Positions 2,356 to 20,600 of a stretch of 64,000 bases of DNA are shown here, one piece after another (the stretch's first letter is position 1; each line of letters starts with the position of its first letter). Position numbers and translations under genes: made by a program. The notes beneath the pieces are model-generated. The model did not search any database, was not told the origin of the DNA, and worked only from the letters and a program-made list of their open reading frames with translations. This DNA comes from Lama guanicoe (Eukaryota): assembly GCA_013239625.1 (NCBI GenBank), contig MU053881.1, positions 14,126,373 through 14,190,372 on the forward strand, given 5' to 3'.

Positions 2356-2630
2356 ATGGCCCTCTCAGTGGACTCGTCCTGGCACCGGTGGCAGTGGCGA
2401 GTCAGAGATGCCCTGCCCCAGTCTCCGTCAGAAGCCACACCACTGCTGTCCCCGGAGAAGGGGAGGCAAAGCTACAGCGTGACGCAGCAGCGGGTCGTGT
2501 TCCCCAACAACAATGCTTTCCACCAGGACTGGGCAAAGGCGTCCAGGAGATACCCCGGCAACAGAATCTGCACGGCCAAGTACAGCCTCTTCACCTTCCT
2601 GCCCCACAATCTCTTGGAGCAATTTAACAG
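2356..2630 (+). CDS. ATP10B: ATP10B canonical coding exon 1 (N-terminal tail, MALSVDSS...EQFNR); exon probably starts at 2297 with 5'UTR
   Basis: ATG at 2356; acceptor tcgcag|attc at 2296/2297; donor AG|gtaaca at 2630/2631, phase 2. Confidence 0.95.
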
Positions 2631-5600
2631 GTAACACAGCCCCTTGCCTGAGCAATATGCACTTTAACCACGTGTTTGCCACTCAGACGAACTGAGGGAT
2701 GATGCCCTCTTGGCCACCTTTCCTTTAATATCCAAAAGCATGTTCTTTGAGAAGCTTGGTCATTCATTCATTCATTCATTCCTTCAATAAATATCTATCA
2801 GATTCTACTGTGTTAGGTTATGTATTGTGTGTTAGAGAAAAAAAAGGTATTGCCCTGACTATATTGGCTAGTGGAAGAGACAGATGTCTTCCCAATTTTA
2901 GGAATTATATAAATTGGTGCAAACTATAATTCTGATAGATACTTCCAAGAAGAGATATACGGGGCTATTGGAGTGAGTAAGGGAAATCTGGCCTAGTTAA
3001 GAAAGTCAAGGAAGACTTCCAGGAGGAAGTGATAAAGGAAGTGTAACCTGAAAGAAGAGAATGCATTAACTAGGTGAAAAGAGGCAGGGAGAAGTCAGAG
3101 AAGTGAGCCAGAAGAACATTCTTGCAGAAAGTCCTTCCTGTGCAAAGGCACTGGGGCAAGAGGGAACAAGGTGCACTTGGAAAACTTAAAAATGCAAGCC
3201 ACTCTTTTGAGATACTATAAGCAGAATCATCATTTAATTTTAAAGCAAAATATATACCTAGACATTATTCTAAATTTTGTGACTATTGTAAGCCACCATT
3301 TATTAAGCAACTACTGTACTCCAGAACCCTCTACATTGTATGTGTAGCAAATATAGCCCATGTAATATTTATAGGAGTCCTTTAAAGTAGGTAGTACTAG
3401 CCCCATATTATGCAAGACAAAACAGGTTCAGGAAAGTCACACAACAAGTAAACAATAGAAACCAGATTTGAATCTAGATGGATTTGGCTTCAAAGCTCTT
3501 ACTATAATGTTCAAGGTGACACTGAAAGAGAATGTCATTTTAATTGGGAAGGGCCAATAGTTAGGAAGAAAAACGTGGAGAGTATTTTTCTTTGTGGCTT
3601 TCAGTTATACCTCCCTCGTACCTTTCAGGTGGGCTAACCTCTACTTCCTGTTCCTGGTGATTCTGAACTGGGTGCCCTCCATGGAAGTCTTCCACAGGGA
3701 GATCACCATGCTACCACTGGCCATTGTCCTGTTCATCATCATGGTTAAGGATGGTGTGGAAGACTTCAAGAAACACTGCTTTGACAGAGAGATAAACTGC
3801 TCCAACATCCAGATATATGAGAGGTAAGGGAAGTCATTTCCTCTGTGGCAAATAGGTTATGCAAACTTAGCAGCATTTTCCAAAAATTAGTCTCTCTTCT
3901 CACATTATAGTTCCTTAAGTTCGTTGAATTCAATGATTGTCAACCAGGGCAGTTTTGCCCTGCAAGGAGCTTTTGACAATGTCTGGAAATATTTTTGGTT
4001 GCCATACTGGGAAGGAGGGTGCTACTGGCATCTGATGGGTAAAGGTCAAGGACGATGCTAAACATCTTACAATATACAAGACAACTTCTCGCAGCAAAGA
4101 ATTATGAGTCAGACCAAAATGTCAATGGTGCTGAGACTTAGAAACCTTAATTTAACTTGTGTAAACATTCCTATTATTAAACCCAACGGTGTTATATTAT
4201 TAAGAGTAGGGTTGAAAGCTCCAGAGTGAAACTCTAGAATTGATTGGATCACCTCAGGAGACCAAGTTCAAGAGCAGTTCTTTGGAGAGTAACAGGCAGT
4301 GTCTCCCAGAAAAGAAAATGCATGCTGTTTTGAAAGCATCTGTGGCCCTTGGCTAAACATTCTTGCTTTTAGAACTTAACCAGGTAGGTTTTAGGACCCA
4401 GAGCTGGCACACCTGTTCTTGGCTGCCTGGGGTGGAAAAGGAAGCTACCTGTGTGTGACGTCTGCATTCCAACAGGTGGAGTCTCAACAAGTAGGAGGAA
4501 GTGACCCGGTGGGTACACACCTGTTCTCTGCAAGCTCTTTCCTTGTCATATTCCTCCCCTAGTGTTTGTACACCGGCTTTTTATTTTCAGTTTTCGTTTT
4601 GAAAGGAGAGAGAAATCTTCCGCAAAGAGGGCAAGCAAAAGATGTCAGGAACATCACTCGCTGGCAGCTGAACAATGGGACTGATCCAGGAAGAACCTCT
4701 TTCACGGGGATCTCAAGTGCCCTGCTATGAGAGTTAAAGAGACCGGACTGAGCAGAGATGAGAAAGGAAGGGAAGAGAAGGCGGAAAAAGAAAGAAGACA
4801 AGAAACGAGTGGTGGTCTCCAACCTGCCCTTTGAAGGATGGTCCCACAAAGAGAATCCCAACAGACATTATCGTGGGAATCAAATTAAGACCAGCAAGTA
4901 CACTGTGTTGTCCTTTATACCCAAGAACATCTTCGAGCAGCTACACCGGTTTGCCAATCTCTATTTTGTGGGCATTGCGATTCTGAATTTTGTGCCCGTG
5001 GTCAATGCTTTCCAGCCCGCGGTGAGCGTGATACCCATCTGTGTCATCCTGGCGGTCACGGCCATCAAGGATGCTTGGGAAGACTTCCGGCGGTACAAAT
5101 CCGATAAAATGATCAATAACCAAGACTGCCTCGTCTATAGCAGGTAAAGCGAAAGCCCGAGGAAGTCTTGAGCCCAGCTCTGATCTCTCTGTGGCCACTG
5201 CCACGGTCGCTGCTGTTTATGGAAGGATGGGGTGGGGAGATGGCATGTTTTGATCGCAGTGAAGCTGTTTGATTCTCCACAGTGGAGATTATGGTCTAAA
5301 ACAAAAAAACAGAAAGGAAAAAAGATCGAGGCTTGAGTCAGTCATATATTAAAATTTGGAGGTCTTTAGTATGTGATGTTTTCTTTGCTGTTTCAGATGT
5401 AAGAATTGTGTATAAATTCTCATCCATTTGGGGTTCAGTGTGTCCATGAGCACGTTGGAGCATGTTTGGAGACCCCTGGAAGGAAGCGGCACCCCTGTTT
5501 TTCAGGGGAGCAGTAGAGCACTGTATTAGGAGAACCAGCCCTGGAGACACTGCCTGGGTTGAACGCGGTCTCTGTCAGTCATTAACGTTATGTGATGTTA

Positions 5601-8600
5601 AGCAAGTGACCTAACCTCTCTGAAACTCATTTTGTCATTCGTAAAATTGGAGCACTTCCCGGGGTGGTCTTGAGAATTGCGTGCGATAATCCTTGGAAAG
5701 TGTTTAGCACTCCTTCTGACGTATGATACTCAACGTGCAAGCTGCAGTGGCTTGATTTATAGACTGTAAAACTTGCCTTAGCTCCATCAGGCTGTCCTGA
5801 AGCTTTCTCTCTGATGTTGTCCCAACCCAAACGAAAACTCCCCGCCCTCTGTCTTTCCGTGTTGTTTGACGTTATTTTATCCATGCTGTTGTTATAGAAA
5901 GACTCCATTGAGCAAGTAACCAAACTGGGTTGTGAGGGAAAGGATATGCTCTGGGTCAGTAAGGGAAGAAAATGGAATTATCATGTGTCTCAATTTTGTG
6001 AGCATTCACGTAGCCCAGAAAGGAGGGAGGGGATGAAGCCTGAGCACTCAGAGAGCGCACGGTGGTGAAGAGCACTTTCTGGGCTAGTGTGAGAAGTCTT
6101 GGGTGAGTCAGTCACTCAGATGATTGAAGCAGGTGAGGGCTTGACCTCCTGCCAAATAAGAAAAATGTCCATCTTTCTCCCGAAGCACCGTCCCTCTGAC
6201 TTCTTCCCTCTGATCTCATGAACCCCAGTTCAGCAGAAGTCCTGCAGTTTCTCTGGTCATTCTGCAGCTGTCGAAGGGCTGGTCTGTCTAAGGAGAAGCT
6301 CTCTTCCCTGGGGAGAACGTGGAACTGACCGACTTGGAGCTGGCTGATGAGAGGGTTTAGGAGCCGAGCTCCACTTGGAAAGCTGTAGCCTGGGGAGGTT
6401 TCTAAGGCAATCGTGTAACACGAGGGACTCAGTTGTCTCCAGAGCACCCCTCAGAGAACCTCCATGCCCTCTCCTTAGCAAAAGAGGAGTTTCTGGTCTG
6501 TCTGCCTGCAGGCCCACAATGGTACACCTAACAGTATGAGTCCGAAGGTGTGGGTTTTATTTTTTTTCCAGCTGGCTCTAATTGTCTTGAATGTTGTGAG
6601 TATCCTGAACACCTAGAGTTGAGATGTAGTCATTCCTCACCTTTGAATAAGGAAATCACGTAGAGAGGAAAAGTAACAGTTGAAGTGTGTCGCCTTTCCT
6701 AACAAGGCTGGTTTTTTAAGAAAGCGTTGTTTTTCTGTTGTCACCAATCCACCCCATCATGTGTTGTTTTGTACTTTCTCCTGTGTTGTTTTGCTCACTG
6801 AAGATGCCCCAGTGAGGCTGGCTCCTCGGGGAGGCATACCTGGGGACCTCAGTCAGCCTGGTGTCCCATGCTCCCTGCTCTGCCAGGAACCCTCTGCCCT
6901 AAGTGTCCCAGAAGAGTGGACCTGTTCTTGGGGGCCTGTGCTGGGCAGGCCAGGCTGTTGTCATTCTGTTCTCAAAATAGCTTCCAGGAAACACCAGAAA
7001 ACCGAGGTGATGACAATCCAGAAAAAGAAGAGTCATCAGTCCCCAGGCTTGCTGGCAGAAAGGGACAAGAAGGGGGTTTTGTGGCATATTTCCTAAAATG
7101 TATTCAGTGGAATAATAGTGACAGAGAGATGGTCTCTTGAAAAAAAAGACCCATGGACAGGAAAAACTACACTGGCCCTCCTGAACCCGTGGTCCATGAA
7201 GGACTAAGGAAAGATCACAATAAAGAAGCCTGTTCATCTTTGCTTAACCCTATGTGGTTCCAAACTTACAGAATCTTGGAAATATTAATATCTCAATTGG
7301 GGCAATTTTAATTTTTCCATTGTTACAAAGTAAGTGACTACAGGGGGCCAGGCAGGTGATTGAATGAAATAGACTGGCTATAAAAAGGAAAGCCATATTA
7401 TTCATGTGCTGATACATGGTAGCAGGCAACAGGGAGCAGTGGGGACTGTGGCAAACTGGGCCAGGGGAGGTGGGGGCCTGTATTCATCTTAGGAGGCAAA
7501 GCTGGCCACTGAGCTCCAGCTGGTTACCATGTGGGAATATAGGCCTAGTGTTGCCAGATTGCCTAAGTTTTAATAGAGGAGCTAAAAATTCATATTTTTA
7601 TTTGAAATAACCTGATTTTTAAGTGTTGGTAACTGATAGACTTTTTCCCAAACACTTCAGACCTATTTTATTTCAGACCTAAAAAATCTTATTTTGCCAC
7701 TGAGCCCCCTGATTTGCAGATTTTGCTTTAGAATACCCTACGAATCTGCAAATGAATAATTAGATTATTCTTTCAAAATTCATCTTCAATGAGGTGGCAT
7801 CTTTCCGTAGAGAGCTGGTATGAACTTGAAGCAAGAACACAGGCCTGTGTGTCAGGAGGCCTATGTGCTAGGCCTCGATCTGTGACCCACTACTAATAAT
7901 AGCTTAGAAAAGTCATTTAAATCTCTGGATCTCAGTTTCTACTTTTGCAAAACTTAGGAATCAGACTAGATCTTGTCCTGTGAGATAAACTTATGGAAAA
8001 ACAAAACCCACAGTCAGACAAGTTTGGGAAATAGCACATACTTGATGAGTTTCTTGAGTCAAACAGTACACGTCAAAAATAAAGTTTCTGGGAGAACCTT
8101 CAGTTAGGAATTATCCAACTTTGTTTAACTGTTGTGTCAATTGAGATGCTCTCTACTGCAAGAAGCAGAAACCTCAACTCAATTTTAAACAATGAAGACT
8201 TTGTTACTTAAGTCACTACAAATGTCTTAAGGTGGGCAAATGATCAGACATAGTTCAATCAGCTAATCAGCATTCTAGATGCAGCACTTAGCATTCCTTT
8301 TCATTCAGTTCCCATCTGTGCTATTTTTGCCCTCAGGCAGATTTCCCTCATGGTAGTGAGATGGCTGCAGCTGCTCCATCCCTCACATCTGCATTTAGTA
8401 ACCCACAAAGGGAGAAAGAAAAGTGCTTTTGGAAGCATTCTTGGAAGCTCCAGGAGGCTTACTCCTCAGTTTTTCCTCATCTCAGTGACCCCAGTGGGTC
8501 ACATGCCCATCCCAGAACCAATCCCTGTGAGCAGGAGGTGAGATTATGCTAATTAGGTGATACTTGAACCACAGAGCCCAGCGTGAAGTTCACTGCCTTG

Positions 8601-17600: not shown

Positions 17601-20600
17601 AAAAAAACAGACTGTAAAAATGGGAGCTCTTGGAAATGGACAACGATGCCCTGGGTTGTAGCAAGTCGTTTTGCTGGAGGTGTAACATCTGACTCTGCTG
17701 TACCACCCGGGGGGAGAGAGCAGAATGGTTTTGAGGAGGTGGGATATCCAAGTAGTGAAAACTGGGGTTTGGGGTCCAGTTGGACCCAGACTCAGATTCC
17801 AGCTTTGTGTTTGTAAGACCTGAGGAAATTTTTCCTGAACCCTCCGTTTCCTCATTGTGAAATGGGGATGGCATCTTCTCTAGTGGGTCATCACACAAGT
17901 AAAGGAAGTACAAATTAACACTAGTGCTCGGCACGGAAGCAACGCTAAGTTCACAATAGTTGCTGCTCCTCTTACTCCCTGGGCTTGATAAATTGGAAAG
18001 AGAAAGTGCGTCCTTCCCTCAGATTTCTTTAGCCCTCCGACTCTGATCACTGTGGGGCCCATCCTTTCAAAGTTCCTGGCACCTTCTTGCTGATTTCCTG
18101 TTGGCTGTTCTAGCACCGCTCCAGACCTTCCGTGATTCCCTGACGGCGGTCTGTATCCTCACCTCTCCTACTCGTAACAAGAAGCGATCTTTCCTATACT
18201 CCAGTTCTTTATGACCCTGCTTTCCACGGCGATAGCTGGGTATTCTGAGAAGTGATGTATATTAAGAATATGATGCTAATGTGACAATTTAGTCACCTTC
18301 TCCTTTTAATTTTTTTCTCCTGCTAGAGAGTAAGGGTTGAGCACAGCACCCAGTCAACAGCCAGCAGCCAGAAGTCTATGTGGTCAGACGAGGGAGCTTT
18401 TACTAGCGGGATTCTCTAGACAGACCATGCTTAGCTTTTCTAGAGATGATGACAGTGGTTGTTTGGCACAAGAAGGAAGAAAAGTCTGTGACAGGCTGAC
18501 TGGGGGATATTTAAGTATAGCTGGGACCTGTTTCCATCCACTCATTAATGTTCTGTAGACCCTTAAGATTCACTCCTGTCTTTCTCTCTCCCAAGAAAAG
18601 AGCAGGGCTACGTGCAGAGGCGCTGGAAGGATGTGCGTGTGGGAGACTTCATCCAAATGCAGTGCAACGAGATCATCCCCGCGGACATACTGCTCCTCTT
18701 TTCCTCGGACCCCAGTGGGATCTGCCATCTGGAAACTGCCAACTTAGATGGAGAGACGAACCTCAAACAGAGGCGTGTGGTGAAGGGCTTCTCACAGCAG
18801 GTAGGGCTCTTTCTAAGATCTTCAATCGGAAGGGCAAAGGGATGAAGCCAGCCAGTTCTCCTGGAAAAATAGATCTAATTTGGGGGGCAGAGGAGAAAGT
18901 AAGCAGACACCTCCTTTTCCCAGGCATTCGCGTGCGCTTCATCTTCCCAGCAACAAGCGGAGAGGGATGTGATCCCCTCGGCACAGACGGGGAATCTGAG
19001 ACTTAGGAAAGGTAACTTGCTGAAGGCTTCAGAGCCATAAATGGAGACCCCCACCCCACGCCACCCGTTCAGCTGAAGAAACCATGCTCTCTGCTCTAAA
19101 CCAAGGAGTCAAGTATCTGTTCAGTTACTCTTGGGACCAACCCACGTTTCTGTGCTTGTCCAGTCCCCGCTCATCCTGCCCAGGTCAGCTCCAGCAACTT
19201 CTCCCTCCACAAATTTTCTCTAGGACTCCTCTGACCTCAGCGTAAATGGCAGCAAGGTGTCATCAACTGGTTTTCCATTTGTGTGTATCTTACCTTGTCA
19301 ACAGCACTGAAACCTCTTTGGGGACAGGGAGCCATCAACATTTTTATTTAACCCCCACGCTTAGGTGTATGAGACCTTGGACATTGCAGAGAAGTCATTA
19401 TTGTTGGGTGGTTAAGAGCCCAGCCTCTCGAGTCTGACAGAACTGAACTCAAAGCCAACCCCACCATCTACTCTCTGCCTCACCTTAGGCGAGTCACTCA
19501 CACCTTCATTCTCTCATCTGGAAAATGGGAACAGAAAGTACCCTCTCCAGACGGTGTTTCTGAAGACCAGGTGATGCATACGTGAATTACTTAGCATGAA
19601 GCCAGGCACGTGGTGAGAGACCAGTAAATAAATAGTTGGCAGTAAATTCAGTGGTGTTCATAGGCAGCCTGTGTTGACTGGTTAAAACTGGGTGTGATGC
19701 TCCAATTTTCTCTTCTTTTCTCTGTAACATTTTTTATTGAGTTATAGTCATTTTACAGTGTTGTGTCAATTTCCAGTGTAAAGTGCAATTTTTCAGTTAT
19801 CCATGAATATACATATATTCATTGTCACATTTTTTTTTGCTGTGAGCTACCACAAGATCTTGTATTTATTTCCCTGGGCTATGCAGTATAATTTTGTTTA
19901 TCTATTCTGCATATGCCTGTCAGTATCTACAAATTTTGAAATCCCAGTCTGTCCCTTCCAATCCCCCGCCCCCTTGGCAAACACAAGTTTGTATTCTATG
20001 TCTATGAGTCTGTTTCTGTTTTCTGTTTATGTTTTTGTTTTTTAGATTCCACATATGAGCGATCTCATGTGGTATTTTTCTTTCTCTTTCTGGCTTACAT
20101 GACTGGTTAAAACTGGGTGTGATGCTCCAATTTTCTCTTCTTTTCTCTGTAACATTTTTTATTGAGTTATAGTCATTTTACAGTGTTGTGTCAATTTCCA
20201 GTGTAAAGTGCAATTTTTCAGTTATCCATGAATATACATATATTCATTGTCACATTTTTTTTTGCTGTGAGCTACCACAAGATCTTGTATGTATTTCCCT
20301 GGGCTATGCAGTATAATTTTGTTTATCTATTCTGCATATGCCTGTCAGTATCTACAAATTTTGAAATCCCAGTCTGTCCCTTCCAATCCCCCACCCCCTT
20401 GGCAAACACAAGTTTGTATTCTATGTCTATGAGTCTGTTTCTGTTTTCTGTTTATGTTTTTGTTTTTTAGATTCCACATATGAGCGATCTCATGTGGTAT
20501 TTTTCTTTCTCTTTCTGGCTTACTTCAGTTAGAATGACATTCTCTAGGGACATCCATGTTGCTGCAAATGGCATTATGTTGTCGTTTATATTGGCTGAAT

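Follow-up and report, generated by a model that had tools for sequence, protein, structure and literature searches.

Whether a single gene can supply two different lipid flippases by exchanging its first coding exons is the question raised by a locus of Lama guanicoe, in which two related 5′ cassettes, A and B, lie in tandem ahead of one shared body. The DNA analyzed, called the window here, is a stretch of 64,000 nt from contig MU053881.1. In tblastn searches, the first exon of cassette A matched the Camelus ATP10B-like model P0005 at 95.7% over 92 amino acids, and ten further exons (18594 to 63281) matched ATP10B models at 66 to 100% identity. By these matches the gene is mammalian ATP10B, a class 5 P4-ATPase of the ATP10 group; its 5′ half lies in the window, and the rest runs past the window end. 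The features relevant to the 5′ cassettes are as follows.

2356..2630, + strand: cassette A exon 1 (coding), with the ATG, a 65-residue cytosolic tail, and the first half of PhoLip_ATPase_N, ending ...EQFN + AG
2431..2448, + strand: E26-A-T-P-L30-L31, an acidic dileucine [DE]xxxL[LI] in the A tail, from the translation
3629..3823, + strand: cassette A exon 2, with TM1 and its N-W, the exoplasmic loop, TM2, the start of the A-domain linker, and a phase 2 donor AG/gt
4563..4757, + strand: candidate 5′ untranslated part of the cassette B exon, with boundaries inferred from acceptor-like sites
4758..5143, + strand: cassette B in one coding exon, with the ATG, a 37-residue polybasic tail, a complete PhoLip_ATPase_N, TM1, loop, TM2, and a phase 2 donor AG/gt
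4761..4808, + strand: polybasic stretch of the B tail (residues 2 to 17); the whole 37-residue tail has 14 K/R
4986..4991, + strand: N77-F78 in TM1 of cassette B, at the position of the yeast "GA motif," ATP10A N98 F99, and ATP10D N110 W111
18596..18800, + strand: first shared exon, A domain (...DGETNLKQR...), in-frame splice target of both cassettes

An earlier note made from the letters alone had proposed these two modules, and its coordinates for cassettes A, B, and exon 18596 all hold. It was also right that each cassette has its own ATG and a phase 2 AG/gt donor that joins exon 18596 in frame. Cassette A totals 470 nt, with 275 nt in exon 1 (donor AG/gtaaca) and 195 nt in exon 2 (acceptor ...cctttcag/G, donor AG/gtaagg), and cassette B is 386 nt long (donor AG/gtaaag); both leave a remainder of 2 nt. 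With either one, the first base of exon 18596, which is preceded by ...ctcccaag and followed by gt at 18801 to 18802, completes AGA, encoding Arg. The ATG at 4758 is the first in-frame ATG of cassette B and has an in-frame TGA two codons upstream (4749 to 4751). An out-of-frame ATG at 4727 to 4729 overlaps the B start and could damp its translation.

Pfam family PF16209 (cutoff, 29 bits) matched cassette B completely, from positions 7 to 66 of 67, at 82.4 bits, and in cassette A the match was split over the two exons at 44.6 bits (positions 10 to 38, exon 1) and 24.9 bits. The shared exon gave a weak match to PF00122 of 19 bits, under the cutoff. Hydropathy peaked at residues 96 to 112 and 119 to 135 in cassette A and at residues 68 to 84 and 87 to 103 in cassette B. 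No ATP10-family structure was among 20 distinct matches in the PDB, and the limits of the transmembrane helices were therefore set by hydropathy and homology to ATP8B1 and Dnf1.

A gap-free alignment of the two cassettes, running from Y-x-G-N to the final R, has 36 identities in 92 positions, reproducing the hand count in the earlier note. Identity falls from 13/27 before TM1 and 10/16 in TM1 to 1/10 in the loop and 6/19 in TM2, with 6/20 after TM2, so that the loop and TM2 are the most divergent parts, as had been claimed. Because orthologues of both cassettes are found throughout vertebrates, the similarity is not due to chance. The TM1-TM2 loop is conserved across vertebrates within the A type and within the B type, and in 34 of 36 species pairs, protein identity is higher in the B core than in the A core (74% versus 68%). 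By these comparisons, cassettes A and B are ancient, intact paralogues; the open reading frames, donors, and vertebrate orthologues bear out the earlier proposal of an old duplication joined to one shared body.

Cassette B matched 746 of 868 candidate longer proteins at an E value of ≤1e-3, and the matches listed include "ATP10B isoform X2" and similar names from eutherians, marsupials, platypus, birds, reptiles, amphibians, and fishes. The N terminus MKKEGRKR, which the earlier note had ascribed to a human isoform, is that of "ATP10B isoform X4 [Homo sapiens]" (P0018/P0019), and its suggestion that the exon may already be annotated is correct (isoform X2 across vertebrates, X4 in human). Among 113 B-type ATP10B proteins, 66 begin at the cassette's own Met with the B tail alone, and 32 bear their own longer N-terminal extension. 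The "isoform X" entries are for the most part automatic models, and annotation at this locus is unreliable because the nearest model, Camelus P0005, strings A and B together in error; 14 other models are likewise misjoined, giving 15 in which an A-type core is followed by a B-type core, in support of the tandem order. Separate A and B isoforms are annotated within one species in Struthio (P0447/P0082), Microcebus (P0488/P0036), and Rhynchonycteris (P0459/P0048), and cDNA-sized Logan contigs of 4.5 to 7 kb code for full-length B-type proteins of 1,423 to 1,444 amino acids starting MRKEG.... Annotated and cDNA-like sequences thus show that cassette B is used in full-length isoforms of other species, and we infer its use in this organism as well.

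The misjoined models and the out-of-frame ATG ahead of B are what one might expect of an unused relic or an annotation artifact. That explanation is extremely improbable in view of the intact B reading frame, donor, and ATG, its conservation from fishes to mammals at a level tighter than that of A, the cDNA-sized contigs, and the presence of the human exon in a validated set (PMC5740500).

That set, a 2017 catalogue of human mutually exclusive exons (PMC5740500), was the only work to bear on ATP10B alternative exons that was found in a search of literature outside subscription journals. Its cluster 2328 is ATP10B, reported there as RNA-seq validated and tissue differential, and corresponds to the same homologous pair as A exon 2 and B here; a 195-nt "annotated constitutive" human exon in its Dataset EV4 is the counterpart of cassette A exon 2. 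With an entry in public annotation and in one genome-wide catalogue, the B exon itself is not new; the novelty lies in its interpretation. The catalogue calls the cluster eutherian only, whereas both cassettes were found here in marsupials, monotremes, sauropsids, amphibians, coelacanth, paddlefish, and bony-tongue fishes. It also models B as a 249-nt internal exon of phase 2-2, whereas B here has its own ATG. Measured against mutually exclusive exons in the sense of that study, the homology and phase 2 of the cassettes fit, but 470 nt in two exons versus 386 nt in one does not, and only the truncated 249-nt model of B resembles the 195-nt A exon in length.

The explanation that we consider probable is that the two cassettes are mutually exclusive and that either A, in two exons, or B, in one, is joined to exon 18596 to give two full-length flippases, with a putative shift in localization or substrate and an origin of the pair before the ATP10 paralogues separated. 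The two enzymes would be identical from the A domain onward and would differ in the cytosolic tail, TM1, exoplasmic loop, and TM2.

How the choice is made could be read in two other ways. If B were an internal mutually exclusive exon, A exon 1 would be spliced to an acceptor at 4893 to 4894, and exon 4895 to 5143 (249 nt) would replace A exon 2 alone. This join is in frame, PMC5740500 lists exactly this exon, and a hamster model (P0007) links A exon 1 to part of B. However, the tract ahead of this acceptor is poor in pyrimidines (7/20, compared to 16 to 19/20 at the two confirmed acceptors), the product would carry the K-Y-x-x-x-x-F-x-P-x-N-x-x-E-Q strand twice in tandem, and among the 113 B-type proteins, a join to A exon 1 occurs only in P0007, a "hypothetical protein" model, and at a different site. 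With its poor acceptor and repeated strand, and with 66 of 113 proteins starting at the B ATG, the internal acceptor is judged very unlikely, as is the hamster model.

A second alternative keeps the same cassettes and places the choice in splicing from a shared promoter, with one or more upstream noncoding exons joined either to the A-ATG exon or to an acceptor about 170 to 195 nt upstream of the B ATG. Acceptor-like sites are present, with predicted exon starts at 4563 (pyrimidines, 17/20), 4591 (14/20), and 2297, ahead of the A ATG (13/20). Joint inclusion of A and B is eliminated in such a scheme, since it meets a stop codon; A exon 2 read into 4591, for example, meets one after 34 codons. 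The validation rule of PMC5740500, which requires a junction read from the upstream region into the second exon, bridging the first, likewise favors splicing from a shared promoter, as it implies a human junction from an upstream exon into B. Evidence pointing the other way comes from base composition and from other vertebrates: positions 4501 to 6500 are modestly CpG rich, as near a start site (11 to 17 CpG per 500 nt, compared to 0 to 5 in three 500-nt windows on each side), and non-eutherian B tails have their own longer N-terminal extension, including an ATG. We regard splicing from a shared promoter as less likely than not, and the promoter or first-exon choice proposed in the earlier note is likewise a candidate mechanism.

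Of special interest is what such an exchange would do to the protein. The earlier note had dealt with the transmembrane gate and passed over the sorting content of the cytosolic tail, in which ExxPLL occurs only in A. Of 58 ATP10B A-type tails, 55 have E..PLL and 56 the acidic dileucine motif, while this dileucine is found neither in cassette B of the window nor in any of 114 ATP10B B-type tails. Polybasic tails are found instead in 102 of 114 ATP10B B-type sequences and in 11 of 12 from ATP10A. The numbering of E26, L30, and L31 in the window equals that of Glu26, Leu30, and Leu31 in the ETTPLL of human ATP10B, where mutagenesis demonstrated that both leucines are needed for endosomal trafficking of the N terminus. 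The ExxPLL dileucine has been shown to target ATP10B to late endosomes, a function known for the human A tail only. In published work on ATP10 chimeras, the N-terminal region determines where ATP10 proteins go and by itself relocates the chimeras.

Because only A has the ExxPLL dileucine, localization may be the main thing switched between the two forms. Cassette A would give the canonical enzyme, with an ATP10D-type N-W in TM1 and an ExxPLL tail that targets late endosomes and lysosomes. Cassette B would supply an ATP10A-type polybasic tail lacking the dileucine, together with an ATP10A-type N-F in TM1, and the resulting protein would escape lysosomal sorting, probably to the plasma membrane.

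The idea of an altered lipid gate, also raised earlier, gains a concrete anchor in the TM1 dipeptide that others have mutagenized, which is NW in cassette A and NF in cassette B. In ATP10B, 57 of 58 A cores have NW and all 114 B cores have NF; NF is likewise found in 14 of 14 sequences of ATP10A and NW in 11 of 12 of ATP10D, so that the split follows cassette type nearly without exception (57/58, 114/114, 117/117, 14/14, and 11/12). Mutation of NW (N110 W111) abolished glucosylceramide (GlcCer) transport by ATP10D, and mutation of NF (N98 F99) in ATP10A only moderately affected phosphatidylcholine (PC) transport (10.1101/373712). The B form may thus lean toward an ATP10A-like lipid preference. 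A substrate switch is far from assured, because the TM4 Pro-4 Gln and TM6 residues critical for GlcCer transport (10.1101/373712) fall in the body common to both forms, and because ATP10A also moves some GlcCer.

These observations bear on a further possibility, that both isoforms exist but the swap alters trafficking or regulation only, with lipid selectivity fixed by TM4, TM6, and the shared body. The TM4 and TM6 determinants, the moderate effect of the NF mutations, and the relocation of chimeras by the N-terminal region all agree with it. Set against it are the loss of GlcCer transport in the ATP10D NW mutants, the near-perfect association of NW or NF with cassette type, and a loop that is almost wholly different between A and B yet conserved within each type. 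Restriction to trafficking or regulation is a serious contender, though we lean away from it. In the preferred explanation, with two cassettes and two flippases, a shift in localization appears at least as likely as a change in the gate.

The cassette pair extends beyond ATP10B. Teleost ATP10D carries the same A/B pair, and many teleost "ATP10D isoform X2" proteins have a B-type cassette. For example, Siphateles X1 and X2 have 1,197 C-terminal residues in common and differ upstream of a boundary that coincides with that in the window. A tree of the protein bodies placed the dual models of Prochilodus and Electrophorus inside ATP10D (SH-aLRT, 97), and the bodies of B-type and dual models inside the ATP10B clade (SH-aLRT, 99). 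Trees of the cassettes grouped the sequences differently: ATP10B-A joined ATP10D in an A-type clade (99/99), and ATP10B-B joined teleost ATP10D-B and ATP10A in a B-type clade (99/97 and 95/97). AU tests rejected a single clade of all ATP10B cassettes (P = 0.002) and a single clade of all ATP10D cassettes (P = 0.0045). By rejecting lineage-specific duplication, the tests imply that the pair predates the ATP10A/ATP10B/ATP10D split. The cassette trees comprise only 92 columns, and their placement of the invertebrate sequences, and hence of the root and the exact timing, is tentative.

Every ATP10A N terminus examined was B type, and the non-teleost ATP10D N termini examined (sharks, a sturgeon, and two further sequences) were all A type; no B-type ATP10D from outside teleosts was among the matches listed. 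A shallow search (64 hits among 202 candidates) revealed no A-type ATP10B in euteleosts. Candidate N-terminal alternatives in invertebrates (oyster X1/X2 and amphioxus X1/X2) were rejected, as these isoforms differ elsewhere. This distribution could be accounted for by a vertebrate-ancestor ATP10 with two 5′ cassettes that were later divided among the paralogues produced by the early genome duplications, ATP10A keeping B, tetrapod ATP10D keeping A, and ATP10B and teleost ATP10D retaining both. In that case, ATP10B-B would represent a hidden, ATP10A-like, nonlysosomal flippase, with a tissue pattern of its own and perhaps a gate biased toward PC. We offer this full scenario tentatively, and exon transfer or gene conversion between paralogues is another possible source of the pattern.

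If this scenario is true, the B form of a Parkinson-risk gene would have been invisible to NM_025153 exon panels and to the cDNA constructs used so far. In the studies of ATP10B in Parkinson's disease that were consulted, sequencing took in the 26 exons of NM_025153 and expression was of the 1,461-amino-acid form, and thus B-exon variants and B-form biology were not covered there. A search of literature outside subscription journals for ATP10B isoforms, splice variants, alternative first exons, and P4-ATPase evolution returned no functional study of the B form, and the accessible part of a 2025 review does not mention an N-terminal isoform. Cassette B would also yield a natural chimera, in which the tail, TM1, and TM2 resemble those of ATP10A and the body is that of ATP10B, bearing on the share of the TM1-TM2 entry side in choosing PC versus GlcCer and on how N-terminal tails set the compartment. 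The pattern would illustrate cleanly how paralogues divide alternative 5′ modules among themselves once a gene has duplicated.

Among known systems, canonical human ATP10B (1,461 amino acids), the only form used in the functional work consulted (PMC7244618 and PMC7530900), is the orthologue of cassette A plus the shared body, with the same E26/L30/L31 numbering and TM1-TM2 exon, and later exons of the window match ATP10B models at up to 100%. Compared to this form, the B form would replace residues 1 to 157 with 129 others, lose the dileucine, and have N-F in place of N-W. ATP10A, a plasma membrane flippase that much prefers PC over GlcCer, has N termini that group with cassette B, sharing N-F, a ...NAFQP... 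loop, and a polybasic tail followed by R-x-V-x-S-N-L, but the body of the B-type proteins is that of ATP10B and not ATP10A. ATP10D, a plasma membrane GlcCer flippase, has N termini that group with cassette A, sharing N-W and an ...E-x-F-x-[RK]-E-I-T-M... loop, but unlike cassette A, its tails lack E..PLL (0/12). The closest parallel for alternative ends in a P4-ATPase is ATP11C, for which the literature describes C-terminal splice isoforms a, b, and c with different sorting signals, including a dileucine-like one. As described there, ATP11C varies only its cytosolic C-terminal tail, whereas the exchange proposed here for ATP10B would also include two transmembrane helices and the exoplasmic loop between them.

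On its forward strand, the window covers the 5' portion of a P4-ATPase gene of ATP10B type, in which two alternative 5' coding modules can each be joined to a shared exon that opens the common protein body.

Coding features of the ATP10B locus (window positions)
2356-2630 (275 nt) and 3629-3823 (195 nt), + strand: cassette A; starts with ATG, ends AG/gt with two bases over
4758-5143 (386 nt), + strand: cassette B; starts with ATG, ends AG/gt with two bases over
18596-18800, + strand: shared exon; the split codon is Arg with either cassette

This arrangement, proposed in the earlier note with the same coordinates, start codons, AG/gt ends and in-frame joining to 18596, was verified throughout in the window sequence. 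Between Y-x-G-N and the final R, the cores of A and B again aligned gap-free with 36/92 identical residues, and the greatest divergence lay, as claimed, in the TM1-TM2 loop and TM2 (13/27 identical before TM1, 10/16 in TM1, 1/10 in the loop, 6/19 in TM2, and 6/20 after TM2). Both cassettes have two hydropathy peaks and one PhoLip_ATPase_N domain, whole in B (82.4 bits) and intron-split in A. Searches by tblastn with three ATP10B models located the cassette exons and ten later exons, reaching 63281; the nearest model, P0005 from Camelus ferus, matched at ~80 to 100% but wrongly strung A and part of B together. An in-frame TGA stands two codons before the cassette B ATG. An out-of-frame ATG also opens a 35-codon upstream reading frame (4727-4834) overlapping the B start codon, which could reduce B-form translation if the mRNA includes it.

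Strong evidence for use of cassette B comes from species other than the guanaco. Compared with longer proteins, cassette B gave 746 matches at E<=1e-3 among 868 candidates, and nearly all of the 120 matches listed bear the name ATP10B. Among these, the B form is usually labeled X2 in eutherians, marsupials, and amphibians, X1 or unnumbered in many birds and turtles, and X4 in human. Of 113 B-type proteins, 66 have the B tail immediately after the initial Met, 32 carry a longer N-terminal extension of their own, 9 come from concatenated models, and 6 are incomplete; both forms are annotated in three species (Struthio, Microcebus, and Rhynchonycteris). Several unnamed proteins of 1423 to 1444 residues starting MRKEG are encoded on Logan contigs of only 4.5 to 7 kb and, because the exons are spread over tens of kb, can only derive from spliced RNA. 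The two-cassette arrangement is genuine, of ancient origin, and conserved.

It is also already in public records. In the datasets of Hatje et al. 2017 (PMC5740500; EV4 to EV6), human ATP10B is cluster 2328, made up of a 195-nt "annotated constitutive" exon homologous to A exon 2 and a 249-nt "MXE candidate in intronic region" that corresponds to cassette B without its first third. The two exons belong to the validated set, and each is used differentially among tissues of the Human Protein Atlas (adjusted p 5e-14 and 3e-13); taking the EV6 columns as they stand, oesophagus appears beside the candidate exon and colon beside the constitutive exon. The statement in the text of that paper that the cluster is eutherian-only is wrong, since annotated A- and B-type forms extend to marsupials, platypus, birds, reptiles, amphibians, and fishes.

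How the cassette is chosen can be read in more than one way. Positions 4501-6500 are richer in CpG than their flanks, which would fit an internal promoter. The validation rule described in PMC5740500 implies a junction from an upstream exon to B in human, and good acceptor-like sites offer candidate exon starts at 4563 or 4591; placed after A exon 2, such an exon would run into a stop codon. The internal acceptor modeled in that study, with an exon starting at 4895 and joined to A exon 1, would keep the frame but is unlikely, as its pyrimidine tract is poor (7/20) and the product would duplicate one strand of the domain.

Fifteen gene models carry an A-type core followed by a B-type core within one open reading frame (P0005, P0001, P0002, P0003, P0004, P0013, P0040, P0049, P0060, P0076, P0122, P0038, P0043, P0064, and P0066: one camel, one snake-derived fragment, three lizards, five birds, and five fishes), so the tandem order is conserved. 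Taken literally, these models imply two TM1-TM2 pairs in tandem within one protein; mis-annotation of this kind recurs at ATP10B loci and at those of teleost ATP10D, including in the window's nearest relative. A tree of the body (24 rows, 1165 columns, with ATP10A as two near-identical rows) separated three vertebrate groups (SH-aLRT 97 for ATP10D and 99 for ATP10B) and assigned the Prochilodus and Electrophorus dual models to ATP10D. Their second cassette gave 564 matches among 716 candidates, the 120 listed including "ATP10D isoform X2" of many teleosts. In Siphateles, the A-type X1 and the B-type X2 have the final 1197 residues in common and diverge at Y-x-x/K, exactly the window's boundary.

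Two mutually consistent trees of the 92-residue core grouped cassettes by type. In the first (52 rows), ATP10B-A joined ATP10D N-termini (99/99), and ATP10B-B joined teleost ATP10D-B and ATP10A (99/97); in the second (47 rows, all named records), support was 99/99 for the A-type and 95/97 for the B-type clade. Invertebrate ATP10 sequences fell outside both clades, with no resolution of their placement. AU tests rejected holding all ATP10B cassettes (p=0.002) or all ATP10D cassettes (p=0.0045) together. Although 92 columns are a thin basis, the simplest reading is a single tandem duplication that preceded the split of ATP10A, ATP10B, and ATP10D, with different losses afterwards; transfer of exons among the paralogues is a possible alternative. 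As far as the literature searched shows, neither this early origin nor the matching arrangement in teleost ATP10D has been described before.

Annotated A-type isoforms of ATP10B range from bony-tongue fishes, paddlefish, and coelacanth to mammals, and none was seen in euteleosts among 202 candidates scored. Among these candidates and the matches listed, teleosts beyond bony-tongues have ATP10D with both cassettes and ATP10B with B only; this may reverse the tetrapod pattern but is only a lead. P0130 from Acipenser sinensis (flagged UNVERIFIED_CONTAM) contains two A/D-type cores, at 67-158 and at 244-320, together with a pair of DGETNLK motifs; either faulty assembly or tandem duplication within a polyploid genome may explain this. 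Oyster and amphioxus homologues (P0147, P0195, and relatives) have a single cassette, start M-G-N-L or M-G-Q-I with glycine at position 2, and combine traits of both vertebrate types in TM1 and the loop; their annotated isoforms lack an N-terminal alternative and differ elsewhere in the protein.

The earlier note proposed that cassette choice would alter the substrate gate, a plausible hypothesis that now has an anchor in a specific residue pair. Roland et al. (10.1101/373712) align N110 W111 of ATP10D and N98 F99 of ATP10A with the yeast "GA motif" position, and report that NW substitutions abolished glucosylceramide (GlcCer) transport and that NF substitutions moderately affected PC transport. 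With cores sorted by loop motif, independently of the dipeptide, NW occurs in 57/58 ATP10B-A and 11/12 ATP10D cores, and NF in all ATP10B-B (114/114), teleost ATP10D-B (117/117), and ATP10A (14/14) cores. The loop and TM2 are nearly unrelated between A and B, yet kept within each type. The B core was the more conserved in 34/36 species pairs, so B is constrained at least as much as the canonical cassette.

The case for a shift in compartment is firmer than that for a shift in substrate, because the TM4 and TM6 determinants are common to both forms. The tail swap, which the earlier note missed, is the better-supported consequence. The A tail carries E26-A-T-P-L30-L31; the leucines of human ETTPLL are reported to be needed for the ATP10B N-terminus to reach late endosomes, and N-terminal swaps among ATP10 proteins to shift them between plasma membrane and late endosomes. 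E..PLL occurs in 55/58 A tails and an acidic dileucine in 0/114 B tails. The B tail is ~25 to 40 residues longer in marsupials, platypus, and sauropsids; in birds, turtles, and lizards, the extra part includes a C-C-x-C stretch rich in Cys that may be a lipidation site. This extension seems to have been lost in eutherians, since a by-eye similar 13-residue stretch lies upstream of the B ATG (4685-4760) in another frame and after a stop.

The other papers covered deal with the canonical (A) form: a Parkinson's study resequenced the 26 exons of NM_025153 and expressed the 1461-aa form, a later preprint used the same cDNA, and ETTPLL is the only tail given in the passages covered of a 2025 review. 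The function of the B form is unexplored, none of the literature searched containing functional work on it. Polybasic stretches occur in 102/114 B and 11/12 ATP10A tails, and the R-x-V-x-S-N-L stretch that follows is common to both. Given these differences in tail, TM1, loop, and TM2, the B form would be expected to bypass the lysosomal route and to act more like ATP10A.
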